Shown: positions 44,602 to 57,234 of the stretch, in pieces
Layout: each line of letters begins with the position of its first letter
Numbering within the stretch: position 1 is the first letter of the stretch
DNA from: Candidatus Latescibacterota bacterium
GTDB taxonomy: Bacteria; Latescibacterota; UBA2968
Assembly: GCA_965205975.1 (NCBI GenBank)
Contig: OZ242195.1
Location: forward strand, 5,184,001 to 5,248,000
Direction: 5' to 3'
DNA length: 64,000 nucleotides
Made by a program: the position numbers and the translations under genes
Notes under the pieces: generated by a model
What the model saw: only the letters and a program-made list of their open reading frames with translations
Database searches by the model: none
Told to the model about the DNA's origin: nothing

Positions 44602-44639
44602 GGGTTTTGAGGTTTACAACATTTATGAAAGGATTTGCT

Positions 44640-45413
44640 ATGTATTTGTACGGGATTCGCAATGCGAGTTTGAATATGGATTGGGGAAAAGACGCTTTTG
44701 CCACAGCAGGGGATATTGGGTTTGATGGGGTAGAGATTGTGCTGCGAGAGGAGGAGCGGTTGGATTGGCTTTTGAGCGCGGCGGGTCGGGAGGAGGTTGG
44801 GCGATGGGTTGAGGAGACGGGTGCGCAAGCGTGTTCTATCAGTTTTGCTCTGTTTCGAGAATACAAGGGGAATGAGGAAGATAAGGCTGTGCGCGACCGC
44901 GTAGTGGAGCTTGTGCAAAAGGGGATTCGCGCATGTAAGGGAATGGGCGGTGTCGGTATTTTGCTTCCGTATTTTGATGCGGAGAATCTCGATATGTCGA
45001 GCGTGCATGCAGAATTGCTGATTGAGGACATGAAGCGATGCGCCCCTGTCGCTGAAGACGAGGGTATTAAAGTTGCTCTGGAGACGAGTTTTTCACCGGG
45101 GTTGTTGAGGACGATTTGCGATGGCGTGGGGTCTGAGATGGTGGGGGTGTATCAAGATACGGCCAATGCGCTGCAATACGGGTACGATTCGGTCGATATG
45201 CTCGTTGATTTATCTGAACACACACAATTGATTCATATTAAAGATACGCGGCGTTCTGATCTGGGCGAGGGCGATGTGGATTTTCCCGCGTGTCGAGATG
45301 CGATTGCACAGATCGGTTATGAGGGTTGGCTGATTTTTGAAACGCCAGGGGGGGCTGACCCTGTGGCATCGGGTAAGAAGAATTTGGTGTTTGCAAAAGA
45401 GATGTTTGGGTAG
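44640..45413 (+). CDS. Sugar phosphate isomerase/epimerase family protein
   Basis: GFDGVE, ALET, DTAN, IHIKD, LGEGDVDF, LIFE. Confidence 0.85.
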   Translation: MYLYGIRNASLNMDWGKDAFATAGDIGFDGVEIVLREEERLDWLLSAAGREEVGRWVEETGAQACSISFALFREYKGNEEDKAVRDRVVELVQKGIRACKGMGGVGILLPYFDAENLDMSSVHAELLIEDMKRCAPVAEDEGIKVALETSFSPGLLRTICDGVGSEMVGVYQDTANALQYGYDSVDMLVDLSEHTQLIHIKDTRRSDLGEGDVDFPACRDAIAQIGYEGWLIFETPGGADPVASGKKNLVFAKEMFG

Positions 45414-45415
45414 GC

Positions 45416-45508
45416 TGGCAGAGGGAGGGGGACTCGAACCCCATGCGAAAATTCGCACGCGGGCTTGTGTTTTGCTGCCCGCGGCCCACCTTGGACCGTT
45501 CACCCCCT
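45416..45508 (-). ncRNA. tRNA-like RNA A (8/4 allo-tRNA-like cloverleaf, 12-nt pseudo-anticodon loop)
   Basis: AGGGGGTG AA CGGTCC AAGGT GGGCCG CGGGC AGCAAAACACAA GCCCG C GTGCGA ATTT TCGCAT GGGG TTCGAGT CCCC CTCCCTCT G CCA. Confidence 0.8.
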
Positions 45509-45527
45509 GCATTGATGCTGTTATTTT

Positions 45528-45613
45528 TGGCAGAGGGCGAGGGACTCGAACCCTATGCGGTTGCCCGCACCACCGACCAGTGTCGGGCGGCCCCCTTGGA
45601 CCGTTCGCCCCCT
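45528..45613 (-). ncRNA. tRNA-like RNA B (8/4 allo-tRNA-like cloverleaf, 4-6-nt pseudo-anticodon loop)
   Basis: AGGGGGCG AA CGGTCC AAGG GGGCCG C CCGAC ACTG GTCGG TG GTGCGG GCAA CCGCAT AGGG TTCGAGT CCCT CGCCCTCT G CCA. Confidence 0.82.
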
Positions 45614-45653
45614 ACCTATCTATTTTGACAGAGCTACGCGCTCAAGAGTTTCT

Positions 45654-46625
45654 TCAAAGATGAGGACGCAGTTCGCCCAGGGATTGTTCCCCGGGTTGGA
45701 TATATTCTACGGCTGGGCTTTCGACGCGTCCATAGGCATTCCATACTTTGAATCCGAGTAAAGAGAGAAGGTCGGGCGATGCCTCGGCGAGGACTTCGGG
45801 TGCCGTGCCTATGGTAAAATTTTCCTGTGGGCGGAACTGGGGACCACAGAATGTGGTGAGTATGGCCCAGCGCAGTTGGTCGCTTATATTGGCTCCCGTG
45901 CCGTGCCAGATGCGTCCGTCGAGGAATCCAACTGTGCCGGCTGGACCTTCGAGGGCGACTGTTTCGATGGCGTTGTCGTCGGGGTTGTCTGGGCGTCGTC
46001 CCCACAGGTGGCTGCCGGGGACGATGCGGGTGCCGCCGTTTTCTGCTGTGAAGTCGCCGATCATCCATACTACGTTGATGACGACGCGGGGCCAGATGGA
46101 TGCGGCATCGGGTTCATCTGTTTGCTCTCGGGTGATAGAGCCTGCGGGTAGATGCGTTCGGTTCGGGCGCGTTGGCATGGGCATCCACCATTGGTCTGTG
46201 TGCAGGCGCATAGGAACGCCGCCGGGTTTGGCGATGTTGGCCGAATGGCTCGATAACAGATAATCATTGCCCAGTGCGTGATCTATGATGTTGCGAACCC
46301 CTGAGTGTAATAGCATGTCTTGAAATACCCGACCTTTGTTGATCAGCATCCACACGCGCTGGTTGACGCCTCCTGCCGATTGTGTAAACGCCCCTGCGCG
46401 TACATGCCCGTTTTTATTTTTAAAATCCCCCCAGTTCTGTTTTGCACCCCCGTCTTCAAATGCAAGCCCGCGTTGTTTTTCGGCAATGGCCTGTTCTTTT
46501 AGACGGGTTTTAATTTTTGAGAGGTCTTCCGCATTGAGCGCGTTGGCGAGCAGGCCATAACCACAGGTGTCGAGTTGGGTTTTGACCTGTGCGAGATTTT
46601 CGGTTGGTTGTGGAAGTTCAGACAT
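45654..46625 (-). CDS. PhyH family Fe(II)/2OG dioxygenase
   Basis: LHTD (HxD), DFTAENGGTRIVPGSH, RIWHGTGAN..R, RPQEN. Confidence 0.9.
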   Translation of the reverse strand: MSELPQPTENLAQVKTQLDTCGYGLLANALNAEDLSKIKTRLKEQAIAEKQRGLAFEDGGAKQNWGDFKNKNGHVRAGAFTQSAGGVNQRVWMLINKGRVFQDMLLHSGVRNIIDHALGNDYLLSSHSANIAKPGGVPMRLHTDQWWMPMPTRPNRTHLPAGSITREQTDEPDAASIWPRVVINVVWMIGDFTAENGGTRIVPGSHLWGRRPDNPDDNAIETVALEGPAGTVGFLDGRIWHGTGANISDQLRWAILTTFCGPQFRPQENFTIGTAPEVLAEASPDLLSLLGFKVWNAYGRVESPAVEYIQPGEQSLGELRPHL

Positions 46626-52460: not shown

Positions 52461-53447
52461 CTATATTTCTTGGTCAAACTTGTCAACGATTTTTTTTGCG
52501 AGAGATTGAAAGTCCTCAAAGCAACTCCTGACCGCCTTTTGTTGCGCGCCGATAGCACCGTCTGCTGGTTTCAACATGAACATAGGTTTTTTTCCCTCTT
52601 GTGCATAGGGCATGAGTGAACGGTAGTCTTTCAAGTGCGCCAAAAGATATTTATCGGTATCTATCGTCGGTGTTGTGGAGTTGCTTTTTTCCAGGACAGA
52701 TTCCCTGTATTCCACAGGTATCTTGTCAATCCATCTTTGGAAGGCTTGTACCGGACGATCTAGTCTGATGGTGTGTCGCATGACAATGTAACCGAGAGGT
52801 TTCATGTCGCCGCTGGGTAGGCTGATATCCATATCTACCGGTTGCTCATTAATGCGTTTTTTCCATGCCGATCTCCATTCTCTCAAAATCTCTCCTACAT
52901 TTCCTAAGCCTTGCAAAGAGAACAGGTCGGGCGCAAGTGGGATAATAATATGGTCGCTGGCTATCAGCGCAGCTCGGTTAATAGCACCGAGATTCGGCCC
53001 GACATCTAACAATGCCAAATCGGCTTCAAATTGTTCACCGGCACTGGCTATCAGCCGCGCAAAGGCAGTTGTTACGCGAAAGGCGCGTTCTTCTCCGTCC
53101 AAACACTTTGACCATCGCTCTGAGAGTTCTCCTTCGCGCTTGGAAAGAGCAAGGTCGCCGACCAACAGGCCGATCCGTTCATCGATTTTTTCTATATGAG
53201 GTTCCGCGGTAATGTCGCCTGTTCCTTTGAACAAGGGTGCTATGTCTCCATCAATGGTTTTTGGCGGGGTCTGCCAAATTTCTTCCAGTCTGTTTTCTCT
53301 TAGAAACATCCCGCTCAGATTGGCTTGGGGATCCAGGTCGGCTGCGATGACGCGATGCCCGACTTCATTGAGCATCCATGCGAGGTGATAAACAAGGGTA
53401 GTTTTACCTACGCCACCTTTATTGTTAAAAAACGCGATGGTTTTCAT
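52461..53447 (-). CDS. ParA/Soj-like (AAA_31) ATPase
   Basis: FFNNKGGVGKTT, DLDPQANL, DVGPNLGAINR, PDLFSLQG. Confidence 0.88.
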   Translation of the reverse strand: MKTIAFFNNKGGVGKTTLVYHLAWMLNEVGHRVIAADLDPQANLSGMFLRENRLEEIWQTPPKTIDGDIAPLFKGTGDITAEPHIEKIDERIGLLVGDLALSKREGELSERWSKCLDGEERAFRVTTAFARLIASAGEQFEADLALLDVGPNLGAINRAALIASDHIIIPLAPDLFSLQGLGNVGEILREWRSAWKKRINEQPVDMDISLPSGDMKPLGYIVMRHTIRLDRPVQAFQRWIDKIPVEYRESVLEKSNSTTPTIDTDKYLLAHLKDYRSLMPYAQEGKKPMFMLKPADGAIGAQQKAVRSCFEDFQSLAKKIVDKFDQEI

Positions 53448-54643
53448 TGACGTTTCCTTATTTCCGCAAGGATGACCGTATCCTCAACTTCAAATTTCAA
53501 CTCAGGGTTGCCATTTTCCTCCAATGCTTTGTACGCTGTCGAAATGCCTATGCCAAAACGTTGCATAAATCCCATATTCTTCATTGCTTCGGCGATGGTG
53601 GGATTGCGATATGCAGTAATATTTAGCGTCCTAAAATTTTCAAAATTCTCTTTTGTTACTTCGCCATAAACCGAACCCGGACTGATAATTTCTACTCTGT
53701 TGGCAAACCAATAAATTCGCACAGGCGTATTGGTGCTGTCGTAGTTTCTGTGGATTACCGCATTTCGGACCAACTCGCGCAGTGCCTCGTACGGATAGTC
53801 TGGCTCTTCAATATGTGTTTCTCCACGGGTGTTCAGAGCAATAGCGATATTTCGTTTCAGCAGGCTGTCTATTTCGCGTAATTGATCCGGTAATGGGCCA
53901 GAGATTACAGTCTGATCGAGAATGGGATCCGTCACCTGATTTCCTGCATAACGGACAAACTGAATATATGCACCCGGAAACCAATAGGATGGCTCTTTAC
54001 CCAACATGAGTATTGCCGTCACTGTTGGCGTTCTGTCTTGAGTCGTCAAACGGAGTGCTCGCAATTGTGCTTCACGGTCACGGTCATTGGCTTCCATCAC
54101 CTCGGGTGGTATAGCAGAGGGCAGGTATTCATTTTCAAATTTCCATATATCCAGATCTTCTTCTATAGATGTGTTTTTCACCCCTTGCATATCAAACGGC
54201 AAATTTCCCCATTGTCTTTTCTCCGTTAAGCGACGCTCTTCATCAGATGTTGCCTGACCGCGTCTTGGGCCAATACGTATCCAACATCTACCATCAACCT
54301 TCACTGGAGGATTATCGGATGGTTTGACCTGTATCACGGCGATTTCGCAACCATTCAGAATTTTCTTGTCAACTTCCATAGATGGAAAGGGGAGAATTTT
54401 GCCGTCATTTCGCAAACCACCGAGTGTCTGTAATAATTGATCATCAATCGTCAAGCCTGCACAACTTCCGTCATCTTTGATGCCAACAAAGATCAGGCCT
54501 GGCTTCCTGTGATCGGGCATGTCGTTGGCAAAGGCGCAGATCGCTTGACGAAATTTATCGAAATCTGTGGTTGCTTGGGTAAATTCCACCCGGTCACTTT
54601 CCCCTCTCTGGATTATCGCAGACAGTTTGTTGTCACTCAGCAT
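53444..54643 (-). CDS. Schlafen/AlbA_2 domain + HATPase_c_4 (RecG-C-like) protein
   Basis: GESDRVEF, ICAFAND, IFVGIKDDG; YPYEALRELVRNAVIHRNY, SPG, RNP, GIGI. Confidence 0.85.
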   Translation of the reverse strand: MLSDNKLSAIIQRGESDRVEFTQATTDFDKFRQAICAFANDMPDHRKPGLIFVGIKDDGSCAGLTIDDQLLQTLGGLRNDGKILPFPSMEVDKKILNGCEIAVIQVKPSDNPPVKVDGRCWIRIGPRRGQATSDEERRLTEKRQWGNLPFDMQGVKNTSIEEDLDIWKFENEYLPSAIPPEVMEANDRDREAQLRALRLTTQDRTPTVTAILMLGKEPSYWFPGAYIQFVRYAGNQVTDPILDQTVISGPLPDQLREIDSLLKRNIAIALNTRGETHIEEPDYPYEALRELVRNAVIHRNYDSTNTPVRIYWFANRVEIISPGSVYGEVTKENFENFRTLNITAYRNPTIAEAMKNMGFMQRFGIGISTAYKALEENGNPELKFEVEDTVILAEIRKRQ

Positions 54644-54676
54644 TATATGCTCCAGATTGTATTATAGGGCTGTTTA

Positions 54677-55096
54677 TTATAGATCGAGCTTGTCTGCAAA
54701 TGCCAGCATTTTTGCTTCAACCTCCTGGGCAATCGGTTGTAGTGTTTCCTGATTGATCTCGATCTGCTGAATCCTTTCATCCACATTTGTCGAGAGACAA
54801 AAACGCAGGTTGTGTGTCAGATCGTGCATCGCGTGCTCAATATGGTCTCGAACCGTCCCAGGAGGGTACATCCACTGTCTTGCCCGGGTCTGTTTCAGGT
54901 TGATGTGGCAATGACCTTTCCCGCCGTGTTTTTTTGCCTCGCCAAAACAATCCAGACGCAAAACTTCCTGATTGTAAGCATATACAGATGCTGCGGGTCC
55001 GTAACCGGCGCGGTCGTTCCGCCAATAGACTTCCAGCCGCACATCGTCTTGTATCGGATATGTAGTCCGATCTTGTCTGCCTGGTTGTGTGTCCAT
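54677..55096 (-). CDS. Hypothetical protein
   Basis: 139-aa ORF with AAGGGAG RBS; EVLRLDCF..GHCH motif. Confidence 0.65.
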   Translation of the reverse strand: MDTQPGRQDRTTYPIQDDVRLEVYWRNDRAGYGPAASVYAYNQEVLRLDCFGEAKKHGGKGHCHINLKQTRARQWMYPPGTVRDHIEHAMHDLTHNLRFCLSTNVDERIQQIEINQETLQPIAQEVEAKMLAFADKLDL

Positions 55097-55204
55097 GTCA
55101 TTTCTCCCTTATTGTGACCTGTTACGGTCTGTGAGCAGCATGGTGGATGGCGTATTTTGTGATAGTGCATCGAAAAAAAAGCCATTGATATCGATCTTGA
55201 GCTT

Positions 55205-55258
55205 GTCATTGCGACATGGTGTTGAGCCGCCACGCGGCAAGCACAACGAAGTAATCCA
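55205..55258. repeat. Palindromic REP-like element, extended variant (copy 2)
   Basis: gtcattgcgacatggtgttgagccgc...gaagtaatcca shares its 5' part and AATCCA end with 21332 and 59477. Confidence 0.65.
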
Positions 55259-55291
55259 AGATGCATCAGATTTTGAACATGTCAATGTAAT

Positions 55292-55855
55292 TCATGAAGT
55301 GATTGCATGTTCTGATAGTTTGCCGACAAATTCATTAGCCGGTAAAATTTCGACCTCATCGACAATTTCGCGTGATAAAGCACCTTTCAGTTCATTGGAT
55401 AAAGGATCTTTCAGATTGCGAAAAAATCTTGCATCCCTTGTCGAATATCTGCCACTAACCACGAGCCAGAACTTGTAATTTTTTGCTTCCAGCAGTTCTT
55501 TCGCGTCTTCGCATACCGCAGATAGGCGACATAATACGAGCATTGATCCATAAGCTTTTAGTCGGTTTTCCTGGCGGATGTACCTGTCGATAAATTGCTT
55601 TTGATCGGTACTTTCGAGATAATGATATTCGTTTTGCAAATTCCTGTGCTGATCTATGAGTCTGGTTTCTTCGATCAAGATAATAGTATCGTCCTTGCTG
55701 AGCAGAAAATAATCACAGCAATTACAAGAACCTAAACCAACATCTTTCCGCATATCAGGTTGCGGCGATTCGCCATCCATGCGGTATGCACGGTGGTCTG
55801 TAAGAGGTGTACCAGCAAGTTCAATCGGTTCGAGGAATTTTTCGAGATCAATCAT
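55292..55855 (-). CDS. Hypothetical protein, degenerate PD-(D/E)XK-like
   Basis: CCDYFLL..IILIEET..K pattern; ATGA overlap with the ATPase. Confidence 0.55.
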   Translation of the reverse strand: MIDLEKFLEPIELAGTPLTDHRAYRMDGESPQPDMRKDVGLGSCNCCDYFLLSKDDTIILIEETRLIDQHRNLQNEYHYLESTDQKQFIDRYIRQENRLKAYGSMLVLCRLSAVCEDAKELLEAKNYKFWLVVSGRYSTRDARFFRNLKDPLSNELKGALSREIVDEVEILPANEFVGKLSEHAITS

Positions 55856-57234
55856 ATCCCCTCAATGTACAGATCAGAGAAGGGCTTGGTTAATTCGTGC
55901 ATGATCTTTCCCATCTTTGTTTCAAAATCCTCTTTGACTTTATCTCTGTTGATAGGAAATTGGTTGAGCGCAATGAGTTGCTCATCGTCCGGGTTCTTCT
56001 TTACATGAACGTCCAGCCATTGGAGGATATCTACACTGTGTGTGGCAATCACGACATTTACACCCTGGCGGGACAATTCGAAGAGGCTTTCTGCCATGGC
56101 GACCTGCCATGCCGGATGCAGATGTGCTTCTGGCTCGTCAATAAAGAGAAACGTCCCTTTGTCCAGTACCTTGCGCTCAATCAACAATGCCAGGATGCCG
56201 AGGTTGGCGATTCCCATAGCGGTGACAGACAATGAGAAATTGTTGCCATTTTCCTGGAAAGATAAATTGCCGGTTGTTTCGGAAATTGCAATCTTTCCGC
56301 CTATGACATTTTTTCCGATCAACTTTGCATATACATCCGGGAAAGCCATTTCTCCGGTATATTCATACTTCAATTCTCTAGCAAGATCATAGAAATATTC
56401 AGGAACGCCACTGAGTCTTTCTCTATCTCCGAAATGCACAGGGTAATCCCGTATGTCTTCCAACGCAGTTTTCAATTTCCAGTAAATAGGTGATTCGAGG
56501 TAGATTGCTCTGGAATAATCTTGTAGTTGTCGAAGATCGAAATGTTCATTGCTAAAATAAATACGGTTGCCATTCTCAAATGCAAAACTGCCAATATTAT
56601 CAATATCAACTTGAGACTCGCTTACTTGCAGTGTTCTGATATGTGAAAGATTAGGCACTTGAAAATTCTGAATCAAATTTTGAGAAATCCTGTCCTGTAC
56701 ACCATGTATAAGAAACTGATTGACACCTATTTCTTTAATATTTTCGAATAGTTCGCTTAGTTTCCTCAATAAACTTTCTATACTCTCTTTTTCTTTTTCA
56801 AAGCCTGTAGGCATGATTCTGGCTGGCGATAACCATCTTTGTTCAAGCACCTCATATAATTCATGCATTTTGTTTACAGAATTGACGGCAATCTGAGACA
56901 ACCGCCATTCAATTTTTTCAGAAGAATCAATAGAAAAAGACCTGGCTATATCTTCAACTTTGCGAATCTCATCGTCCAGTAGCGGTAGTAGCGAATCTTC
57001 ATCCTTATAACCTAAGGCCTCTATCCTACCCAAACTCCGTCGCAGCGAATTTAGCAGACTGTTGACGTACACTATGGCATAGTCCGCGTTCATTGCGTTA
57101 AATATTGAATAGAGGAGTTTTGATACAAAACTTTTGCCCGTATTGTTTGGTCCAGCAAACACAGTGAACTGGCCGATGCAGACTTCTGAATCTTCGAGTT
57201 TACCGATATTCTTGATTTTTACTTTGAAAGCCAT
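55852..57234 (-). CDS. AAA_15/AAA_21 ABC-type ATPase
   Basis: GPNNTGKS, TAMGIANL, IDEPEAHLHP, ATHS; AT-rich coding sequence. Confidence 0.85.
   Translation of the reverse strand: MAFKVKIKNIGKLEDSEVCIGQFTVFAGPNNTGKSFVSKLLYSIFNAMNADYAIVYVNSLLNSLRRSLGRIEALGYKDEDSLLPLLDDEIRKVEDIARSFSIDSSEKIEWRLSQIAVNSVNKMHELYEVLEQRWLSPARIMPTGFEKEKESIESLLRKLSELFENIKEIGVNQFLIHGVQDRISQNLIQNFQVPNLSHIRTLQVSESQVDIDNIGSFAFENGNRIYFSNEHFDLRQLQDYSRAIYLESPIYWKLKTALEDIRDYPVHFGDRERLSGVPEYFYDLARELKYEYTGEMAFPDVYAKLIGKNVIGGKIAISETTGNLSFQENGNNFSLSVTAMGIANLGILALLIERKVLDKGTFLFIDEPEAHLHPAWQVAMAESLFELSRQGVNVVIATHSVDILQWLDVHVKKNPDDEQLIALNQFPINRDKVKEDFETKMGKIMHELTKPFSDLYIEGI

Follow-up and report, generated by a model that had tools for sequence, protein, structure and literature searches.

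The paired tRNA-like RNAs described here belong to a real, conserved and lineage-restricted family of non-decoding allo-tRNA derivatives, which, from its sequence features, appears to descend from an (8/4) allo-tRNA of the tryptophan type. The pair was found in a 64,000-nt stretch of DNA (the window) from a Candidatus Latescibacterota genome consisting of one contig of 5.56 Mb (G000). The acceptor ends of these RNAs may be read by a tryptophanyl-tRNA synthetase paralogue of tryptophan starvation (TrpRS2), a reading that we put forward tentatively and to which we give somewhat less than an even chance. No description of the family was found in the open-access literature (subscription papers and bioRxiv supplements lay outside the scope of this search), and the fit to the Trp identity set, a family member with a CCA loop (type C) and the domain-less TrpRS paralogue are new relative to the sequence-only reading of the window from which this analysis started.

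Both RNAs are encoded on the minus strand. The first is 86 nt long (45613-45528) and was defined by sequence and fold, orthologues and covariation; the second, which is the downstream member in the direction of transcription and was labelled copy A in the sequence-only reading, is 93 nt long (45508-45416) and was defined by sequence, fold, an Rfam match and orthologues in G004, G005, G008, G009 and G016. According to the folds and the covariation each forms a cloverleaf in which the 12-bp acceptor branch is split 8/4, with an 8-bp acceptor stem carrying A1-U72, G2-C71 and G3:U70 (and a U-U mismatch at pair 7 in the 93-nt RNA), a 6-bp D stem with a loop of 4 or 5 nt, a 6-bp V arm (closed by a GCAA loop in the 86-nt RNA), a 4-bp T stem with the loop TTCGAGT, G73 and CCA. 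Neither offers a readable three-base anticodon: the 86-nt RNA has a 5-bp stem with a 4-nt loop (45581-45578, minus strand), 4 nt long in all orthologues displayed, and the 93-nt RNA has a 12-nt A/C-rich loop at this position (45476-45465, minus strand). The location and anatomy of the pair, its allo-tRNA-like body and the loss of a usable anticodon, all proposed from the letters of the window, were borne out by the sequence, the folds, the covariation and the retention of the 4- and 12-nt loops in orthologues. The two copies are 72% identical (E-value 4.5e-6 in a within-genome search), and their fold z-scores were -2.4 and -1.9, with 2/200 and 8/200 shuffled sequences, respectively, being equally stable.

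It had also been expected that standard annotation would miss the pair, and this proved correct, since ARAGORN reported nothing in the window and the sole Rfam match was tRNA-Sec on the 93-nt RNA at 31 bits against a cut-off of 47. The genome carries 48 ordinary tRNA calls (including tRNA-Trp, tRNA-Sec, four tRNA-Ser and three tRNA-Ala) and a tmRNA; the pair therefore fills no decoding gap. RNase P RNA is also present in the host. Metatranscriptome contigs from RNA runs of four studies (4 of 23 listed), which may hold DNA, covered the RNAs and their flanking genes alike and showed no mature RNA ends.

Covariation was assessed using a hand-written structure on a MAFFT alignment of 22 distinct homologues, which are related by descent, with the anticodon arm excluded. 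In this alignment 97.9% of the stem cells paired and 12 of the 24 pairs changed on both sides, a level reached by none of 500 shuffles, and registers slid along the alignment paired at 50-59%. The D-loop GG and the T-loop U-U-C-R-A, as expected for a tRNA elbow, were invariant. The arm at the anticodon position stays paired even though the length of its loop varies between 4 and more than 50 nt among the one to five family copies per genome. A normal 7-nt loop is possible in at most two of 47 members according to the aligned loops, both of them type C-like. The 4-nt-loop type was found in 17 of the 20 other genomes of the genus (in one with an insertion; a further match, in G018, was a tRNA-Met and was removed from the count), the 12-nt-loop type in five and a 6-nt-loop type in four, in arrays of one to three copies whose order varies. 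Normal 7-nt loops in close relatives had been named in advance as the sign of recent decay, and the persistence of the 4-nt type speaks against them; on these sequence comparisons the window pair is not a product of recent decay.

A related view sees in the RNAs the remains of allo-tRNA genes that had their toxic anticodon inactivated and persist by drift or as DNA landing sites; it draws on three observations. In the closed genomes G011 and G018 the gene for the convergent neighbour of the pair is present and the orthologous site holds no trace of the RNAs, from which the family must be considered dispensable; several copies are broken (a 26-nt T-loop insert in G020, G007 and G012, truncations in G006, G015 and G016, loss of CCA in G045); and gene turnover around the type C locus is fast. 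We nevertheless regard this view as highly unlikely. The compensatory changes in the D, V, T and acceptor stems together with the invariant G:U wobble indicate selection at the RNA level, and the 4-nt-loop type has lasted across 17 of 20 genomes. Among 71 flanking proteins scanned there was no integrase and one IS605-type gene beside a single copy (G017), so that no mobile-element gene is a fixed associate of the family, and G000 contains no lone 3' duplicate of the RNAs.

The family is narrowly distributed. An exact pattern search of 185,579 species genomes returned 25 loci, of which 24 are titled Latescibacteria or Latescibacterota and one "bacterium", and the same search of JGI metagenomes returned 13 loci. 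A covariance model detected members in 23 of 132 genomes of the class, and a broader model applied to 39 chosen genomes added G013, giving 24 RNA-bearing genomes, all within two families of one order of Ca. Latescibacterota and 19 of them within one genus. No member was found in 76 genomes of family f4 (model search), in 30 genomes of other classes (pattern search) or in plasmids (family pattern). All searches were anchored on the acceptor end described above and members with other ends would escape them. The following matches were excluded: those in G041 and G026 and one each in G043, G021 and G052, which are tRNA-Ser; those in G033 and G086, whose 5' ends are not tRNA-like and which were dropped unfolded; and two classical allo-tRNAs with G1-C72, one in G043 (L224:128-221, with a 7-nt loop containing GAC) and one in G021 (L227:1501-1588, with an 8-nt loop). 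The last two extend the classical allo-tRNA class to Latescibacterota. A subtype with a D stem of 4-5 bp and a long D loop (L006:1615-1709, L017:1276-1369 and L165:465-553) lacks an encoded CCA and has A3-U70 in two of its three members.

The genomic context of the pair is variable. A PhyH-family dioxygenase gene (45654..46625, minus strand; Pfam) lies upstream, and a gene for a xylose-isomerase-like TIM barrel (44607..45413, plus strand) converges on the pair, its stop codon lying 2 nt from the CCA end. Because the RNAs start 40 nt after the phyH stop codon on the same strand, and one metatranscriptome contig (X4), which may be DNA, spans phyH through both RNAs, the cloverleafs might serve as RNase P/Z cleavage sites by which the mRNA upstream acquires its 3' end, a role that the sequence-only reading had listed. 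This role lost most of its appeal upon comparison and is now barely credible, since the RNAs are retained where phyH has been deleted (G005) or has given way to another gene (G001 and G017), so that phyH is not a fixed partner, lone copies are followed by their own terminator-like hairpins (in five of seven 3' flanks examined, strong and similar to those after host tRNA genes), and a cutting signal has no need for synthetase-type bases. No such hairpin follows the window pair or the type C gene of G000. In other genera unrelated genes flank the RNAs.

The stretch upstream of the 86-nt RNA (45614..45653), identified by comparison across the genus, ends in G(-2) U(-1) and is kept in G001 and G017 despite the different upstream gene. 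A scan for promoter consensus elements found one promoter-like site further upstream (0.6 expected), which is a candidate only. The leader of the 93-nt RNA is the 19-nt A-rich spacer (45509..45527) and ends in G(-2) C(-1). Every one of the 39 copies that combine A1, G73 and CCA carries G(-2)Y(-1), as do 18 of the 48 host tRNAs; we therefore read it as a favoured RNase P leader, and a 10-bp acceptor stem starting at G(-2) was set aside for the same reason.

A third family member in G000, found by a descriptor scan (type C; G000 C1 690167-690063, minus strand; L021:8064-8168), is 105 nt long and combines the acceptor end of the pair with a longer V arm and carries U-CCA-A in a loop of 8 nt. Type C matches, some of them broken, occur in 13 of the 20 other genomes of the genus. 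The loop reads U-CCA in 10 of 12 aligned members and U-UCA in the other two, which points to a Trp-type ancestor, and most loops are enlarged to 8-9 nt, although the loop alignment allows L164:1501-1594 to be read as a plain 7-nt UUCCAAA loop. The CCA anticodon in a 7-nt loop and the 7/5 branch of ordinary tRNA-Trp are absent from the window pair, and type C keeps its CCA mostly in an enlarged loop. Reading the type C loop as a quadruplet (UCCA) or as Gly (UCC) was rejected, since the base ahead of it is not always U. A 161-bp stretch spanning type C and its upstream region is the same in five species-level genomes, and genes near the locus are shuffled like cassettes.

The tryptophan reading of the family rests largely on its acceptor end. 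In the table of bacterial identity elements in PMC9976931, the Trp set comprises G73, A1-U72, G2-C71, G3-C70, G4-C69, G5-C68, A9 and a CCA anticodon, the Ala set A73, G2-C71, G3:U70, G4-C69 and G20, and the Ser set G73, C72, G2-C71, R4-Y69 and a long V arm. Among 47 distinct family members (one partial match was dropped, and the counts lean high as the models were built on these features) we counted A1-U72 in 45, G2-C71 in 47, G4-C69 in 46, G5-C68 in 47, A9 in 44 and G73 in 46. Measured against this published table, the family carries six of the seven non-anticodon Trp elements, the seventh, G3-C70, being replaced by G3:U70 in 45 of 47 members, among them every one of the 41 that encode CCA, and by A3-U70 in the remaining two. 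Neither G4-C69 nor G5-C68 is present in the tRNA-Trp of the host itself. In 50,697 phage records the sole match of the pair was the 3' end of a tRNA-Trp. In the allo-tRNA table of PMC5389517 (731 rows) there is no row for the UGG codon and none with the family's 5' start, and allo-tRNAs with A1-U72/G73 and other anticodons are listed in the same source.

The family also matches the chief element of the Ala set and the chief elements of the Ser set, and the sequence-only reading had suggested these two amino acids. Its observations on G3:U70, the V arm and G73 stand, and it overlooked the fit of the acceptor end to the Trp set. Housekeeping synthetases could attach Ala to the RNAs by way of G3:U70, or Ser by way of the V arm and G73, and the RNAs would then act as off-ribosome carriers or EF-Tu ligands, with type C possibly placing Ala or Ser at Trp codons under Trp shortage; we consider this possible but doubtful. 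The G3:U70 pair is nearly universal, L176 has shifted to the full Ala set (G1-C72, G3:U70, A73), the V arm is held at about 6 bp by compensatory changes, the genome encodes a single intact AlaRS and SerRS, and according to the E. coli experiments described in PMC5389517, allo-tRNAs with G3:U70 inserted Ala and Ser (Ser only with G73). On the other hand, A1-U72 and G73 are kept despite departing from the Ala set (A73), as is U72 despite departing from the Ser set (C72), in the form given by PMC9976931. As for possible recipients, G000 encodes a DUF2156-like transferase and no FemAB-like, Leu/Phe-transferase or CDPS gene, and the DUF2156 protein (5/5) and RqcH (53/53) were found in RNA-negative genomes alike; a search for lantibiotic dehydratases matched none of its controls and carries no weight. 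The T stem keeps G-C pairs and a full T loop, which, if the comparison is apt, differs from the EF-Tu-evading staphylococcal tRNA-Gly covered in PMC9976931. A stand-alone DUF2156-like protein is encoded beside a BpsA-like gene and near a CCA-adding enzyme gene at L258:6224-8093.

A Pfam search of G000 identified a third class Ic synthetase gene, which encodes the TrpRS paralogue (trpS2; C1 about 2470710-2471650, minus strand; L190:8711-9650) and whose closest solved relative is Deinococcus TrpRS II. An in-frame deletion has stripped the G000 protein of its anticodon-binding domain and of the larger part of the KMSKS loop, and given the role of this loop the protein may be incapable of charging. 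Structure prediction of the deleted form gave a pLDDT of 74 from a 5-row alignment and nothing beyond the alignment. All 21 genomes of the genus have trpS2: ten are full length (all among the 19 RNA-bearing genomes of the genus), nine share the same deletion, and G011 and G018 have other deletions. The border of the domain loss is the same in the nine genomes and different in G011, G018, G044, G045 and G046, and deleted or degenerate forms also occur in G021, G055 and six g6 genomes. Full-length and domain-less alleles are 95-97% identical and are mixed on the trpS2 gene tree, which would most simply be explained by one deletion event that was spread by recombination. With dN/dS ratios of 0.047 in seven of the nine deleted alleles and 0.07 in eight full-length ones, the catalytic part is, by this sequence measure, under purifying selection with or without the domain.

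Regulation of trpS2 by tryptophan is suggested by a leader peptide with two or three tandem Trp codons, found in 21 of 37 loci scanned with a filter that misses some loci. The leader is accompanied by a terminator-like hairpin, which together indicate control by attenuation. In G000 the peptide has three Trp codons followed by PPP. No Trp leader peptide precedes trpS1 of G000, and no T-box was found near the trpS genes. An operon of trpS2 with a GNAT gene was rejected because the genes are convergent and the GNAT gene also occurs without trpS2. TrpRS2 degenerates without the HIGH motif keep the leader and a C-terminal motif, suggestive of a Trp-regulated pseudo-enzyme.

The link between the RNAs and TrpRS2 is circumstantial. 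We found trpS2 in 23 of 24 RNA-bearing genomes and in 15 of 108 genomes without the RNAs (15 of 32 when family f4 is set aside), counts that omit 33 weaker matches and the extra weak matches of two f4 genomes and that are not independent, since 19 of the 24 positives come from one genus. The exception among the RNA-bearing genomes is G052, where trpS2 was not found in an assembly that is 88% complete; RNA-bearing G045 and G046 have a TrpRS2 without the HIGH motif. Four RNA-negative genomes (G023, G051, G053 and G043) have a full-length trpS2, and degenerate forms keep the leader and some motifs in RNA-negative lineages, so TrpRS2 also exists independently of the RNAs. Within the genus, loss of the TrpRS2 domain does not track loss of the type C RNA. 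Family RNAs had no match in 15 trpS loci scanned and are never adjacent to trpS2; in G000 the pair and trpS2 lie about 2.8 Mb apart.

Taken together, we propose for the tryptophan reading that RNase P would cut the RNAs at A1, that their 3' ends would be the CCA, and that the products would fold into an L shape unable to decode. Their acceptor end would be read, though this step is less sure, by a tryptophanyl-tRNA synthetase, most likely TrpRS2, which the Trp attenuator would switch on when tryptophan is short and whose anticodon-binding domain has been lost repeatedly. The RNAs would then act off the ribosome, as ligands or substrates buffering TrpRS activity or tryptophan during starvation, and type C would be the least changed form. 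A precedent for such reading by TrpRS2 is the 8/4 selC* tRNA (A1:U72) with its domain-less CysRS* in the part of PMC5389517 that treats it. The stronger proposal of a dedicated non-translational system, in which the starvation-induced domain-less TrpRS charges the anticodon-free RNAs with Trp or an analogue and the CCA-bearing G3:U70 sister puts Ala or Ser at Trp codons, is unlikely as a joint claim. If true, this would be an extant example of aminoacylation by an acceptor-stem code alone, and charging by a private enzyme would offer a starting point for orthogonal tRNA-synthetase pairs. The loss of the anticodon with a base-exact acceptor kept shows that something besides decoding selects on tRNA shape, and the natural variants (loops of 4 to 50 nt, TrpRS2 alleles) make acceptor-stem-only recognition testable in vitro.

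The range of loop sizes across one to five copies per genome would also suit a panel of uncharged, tRNA-shaped decoys baiting tRNA-cutting or tRNA-modifying toxins. HepT-like/MNT and BrnT genes (G052) and a PIN gene (three array loci) occur near some copies, and PMC5389517, where it discusses inactive allo-tRNAs, ties them to such systems. This is decidedly unlikely, as toxin-antitoxin genes are absent from most flanks, bait for an anticodon nuclease should keep a 7-nt loop, which these RNAs lack, and the base-exact acceptor end would be left unexplained. Counter-defence baits would be expected on viral contigs, yet the strict pattern had no match there, and the 37 loci matched by a loose viral pattern were without exception interpreted as ordinary 7/5 tRNAs or chance joins.

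Compared with known systems, bacterial Y RNAs (YrlA) and the tRNA-like domain of tmRNA share with the family tRNA mimicry without an anticodon, and tmRNA also has G3:U70. However, no Ro60/TROVE gene was found in five of five genomes and there was no Rfam match to Y RNA/YrlA, and the tmRNA of G000 is a separate gene. The tRNA-Sec model (RF01852) shares the 6-bp D stem, long V arm and G73, whereas the window match is below its cut-off, the branch has 12 rather than 13 bp, a UCA loop is missing and G000 has a separate tRNA-Sec. As presented in the main account and table of PMC5389517 (Mukai et al. 2017), (8/4) allo-tRNAs share the 8/4 branch, the Sec-like long D stem with a short loop, the long V arm and G73, in some members G3:U70 or A1-U72, and arrays of irregular tRNAs. 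They are tabulated there by three-base anticodon (figures with possible loop variants lie outside this comparison), and the window RNAs differ from them in their 4- or 12-nt loops, their Latescibacterota hosts and the absence of a transposase tied to the locus. The selC* tRNA-Cys and CysRS* of Desulfobacterales, in the passages of PMC5389517 and PMC9437257 devoted to them, share the 8/4 fold, A1:U72 and a class I paralogue without an anticodon-binding domain, which G000 likewise has in TrpRS2. Their genes, however, are adjacent and the tRNA, which has U73 and a UCA loop of 7 nt, is a decoding one, whereas the window-type RNAs are unlinked to trpS2, non-decoding and only putatively paired with it. 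The Bacillus cereus tRNA-Other, as portrayed in the part of PMC3399842 used here, is likewise outside translation, a dispensable pseudo-tRNA with a Trp anticodon and a reported effect on trpS1 expression; it is single-copy, lies within a larger RNA and acts through T-box control, in contrast to the window copies, which have no anticodon and whose host has no T-box near trpS.

Some further features of the genome were recorded. The 26-nt T-loop insert of three copies (L018, L073 and L074) is a hairpin element, similar elements occur at about 40 sites in G000 in REP-like hairpins, and it may be the trace left by a small mobile element whose targets are hairpin loops. At 52461-57234 of the window, consecutive genes for a ParA-like ATPase, a Schlafen/AlbA protein and an AAA_15/AbiEii-like ATPase resemble a defence-type island. 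A copy of the 3' part of tRNA-Val(TAC) at C1 5314563-5314670, 4.5 kb from the gene, is likely an integration scar.
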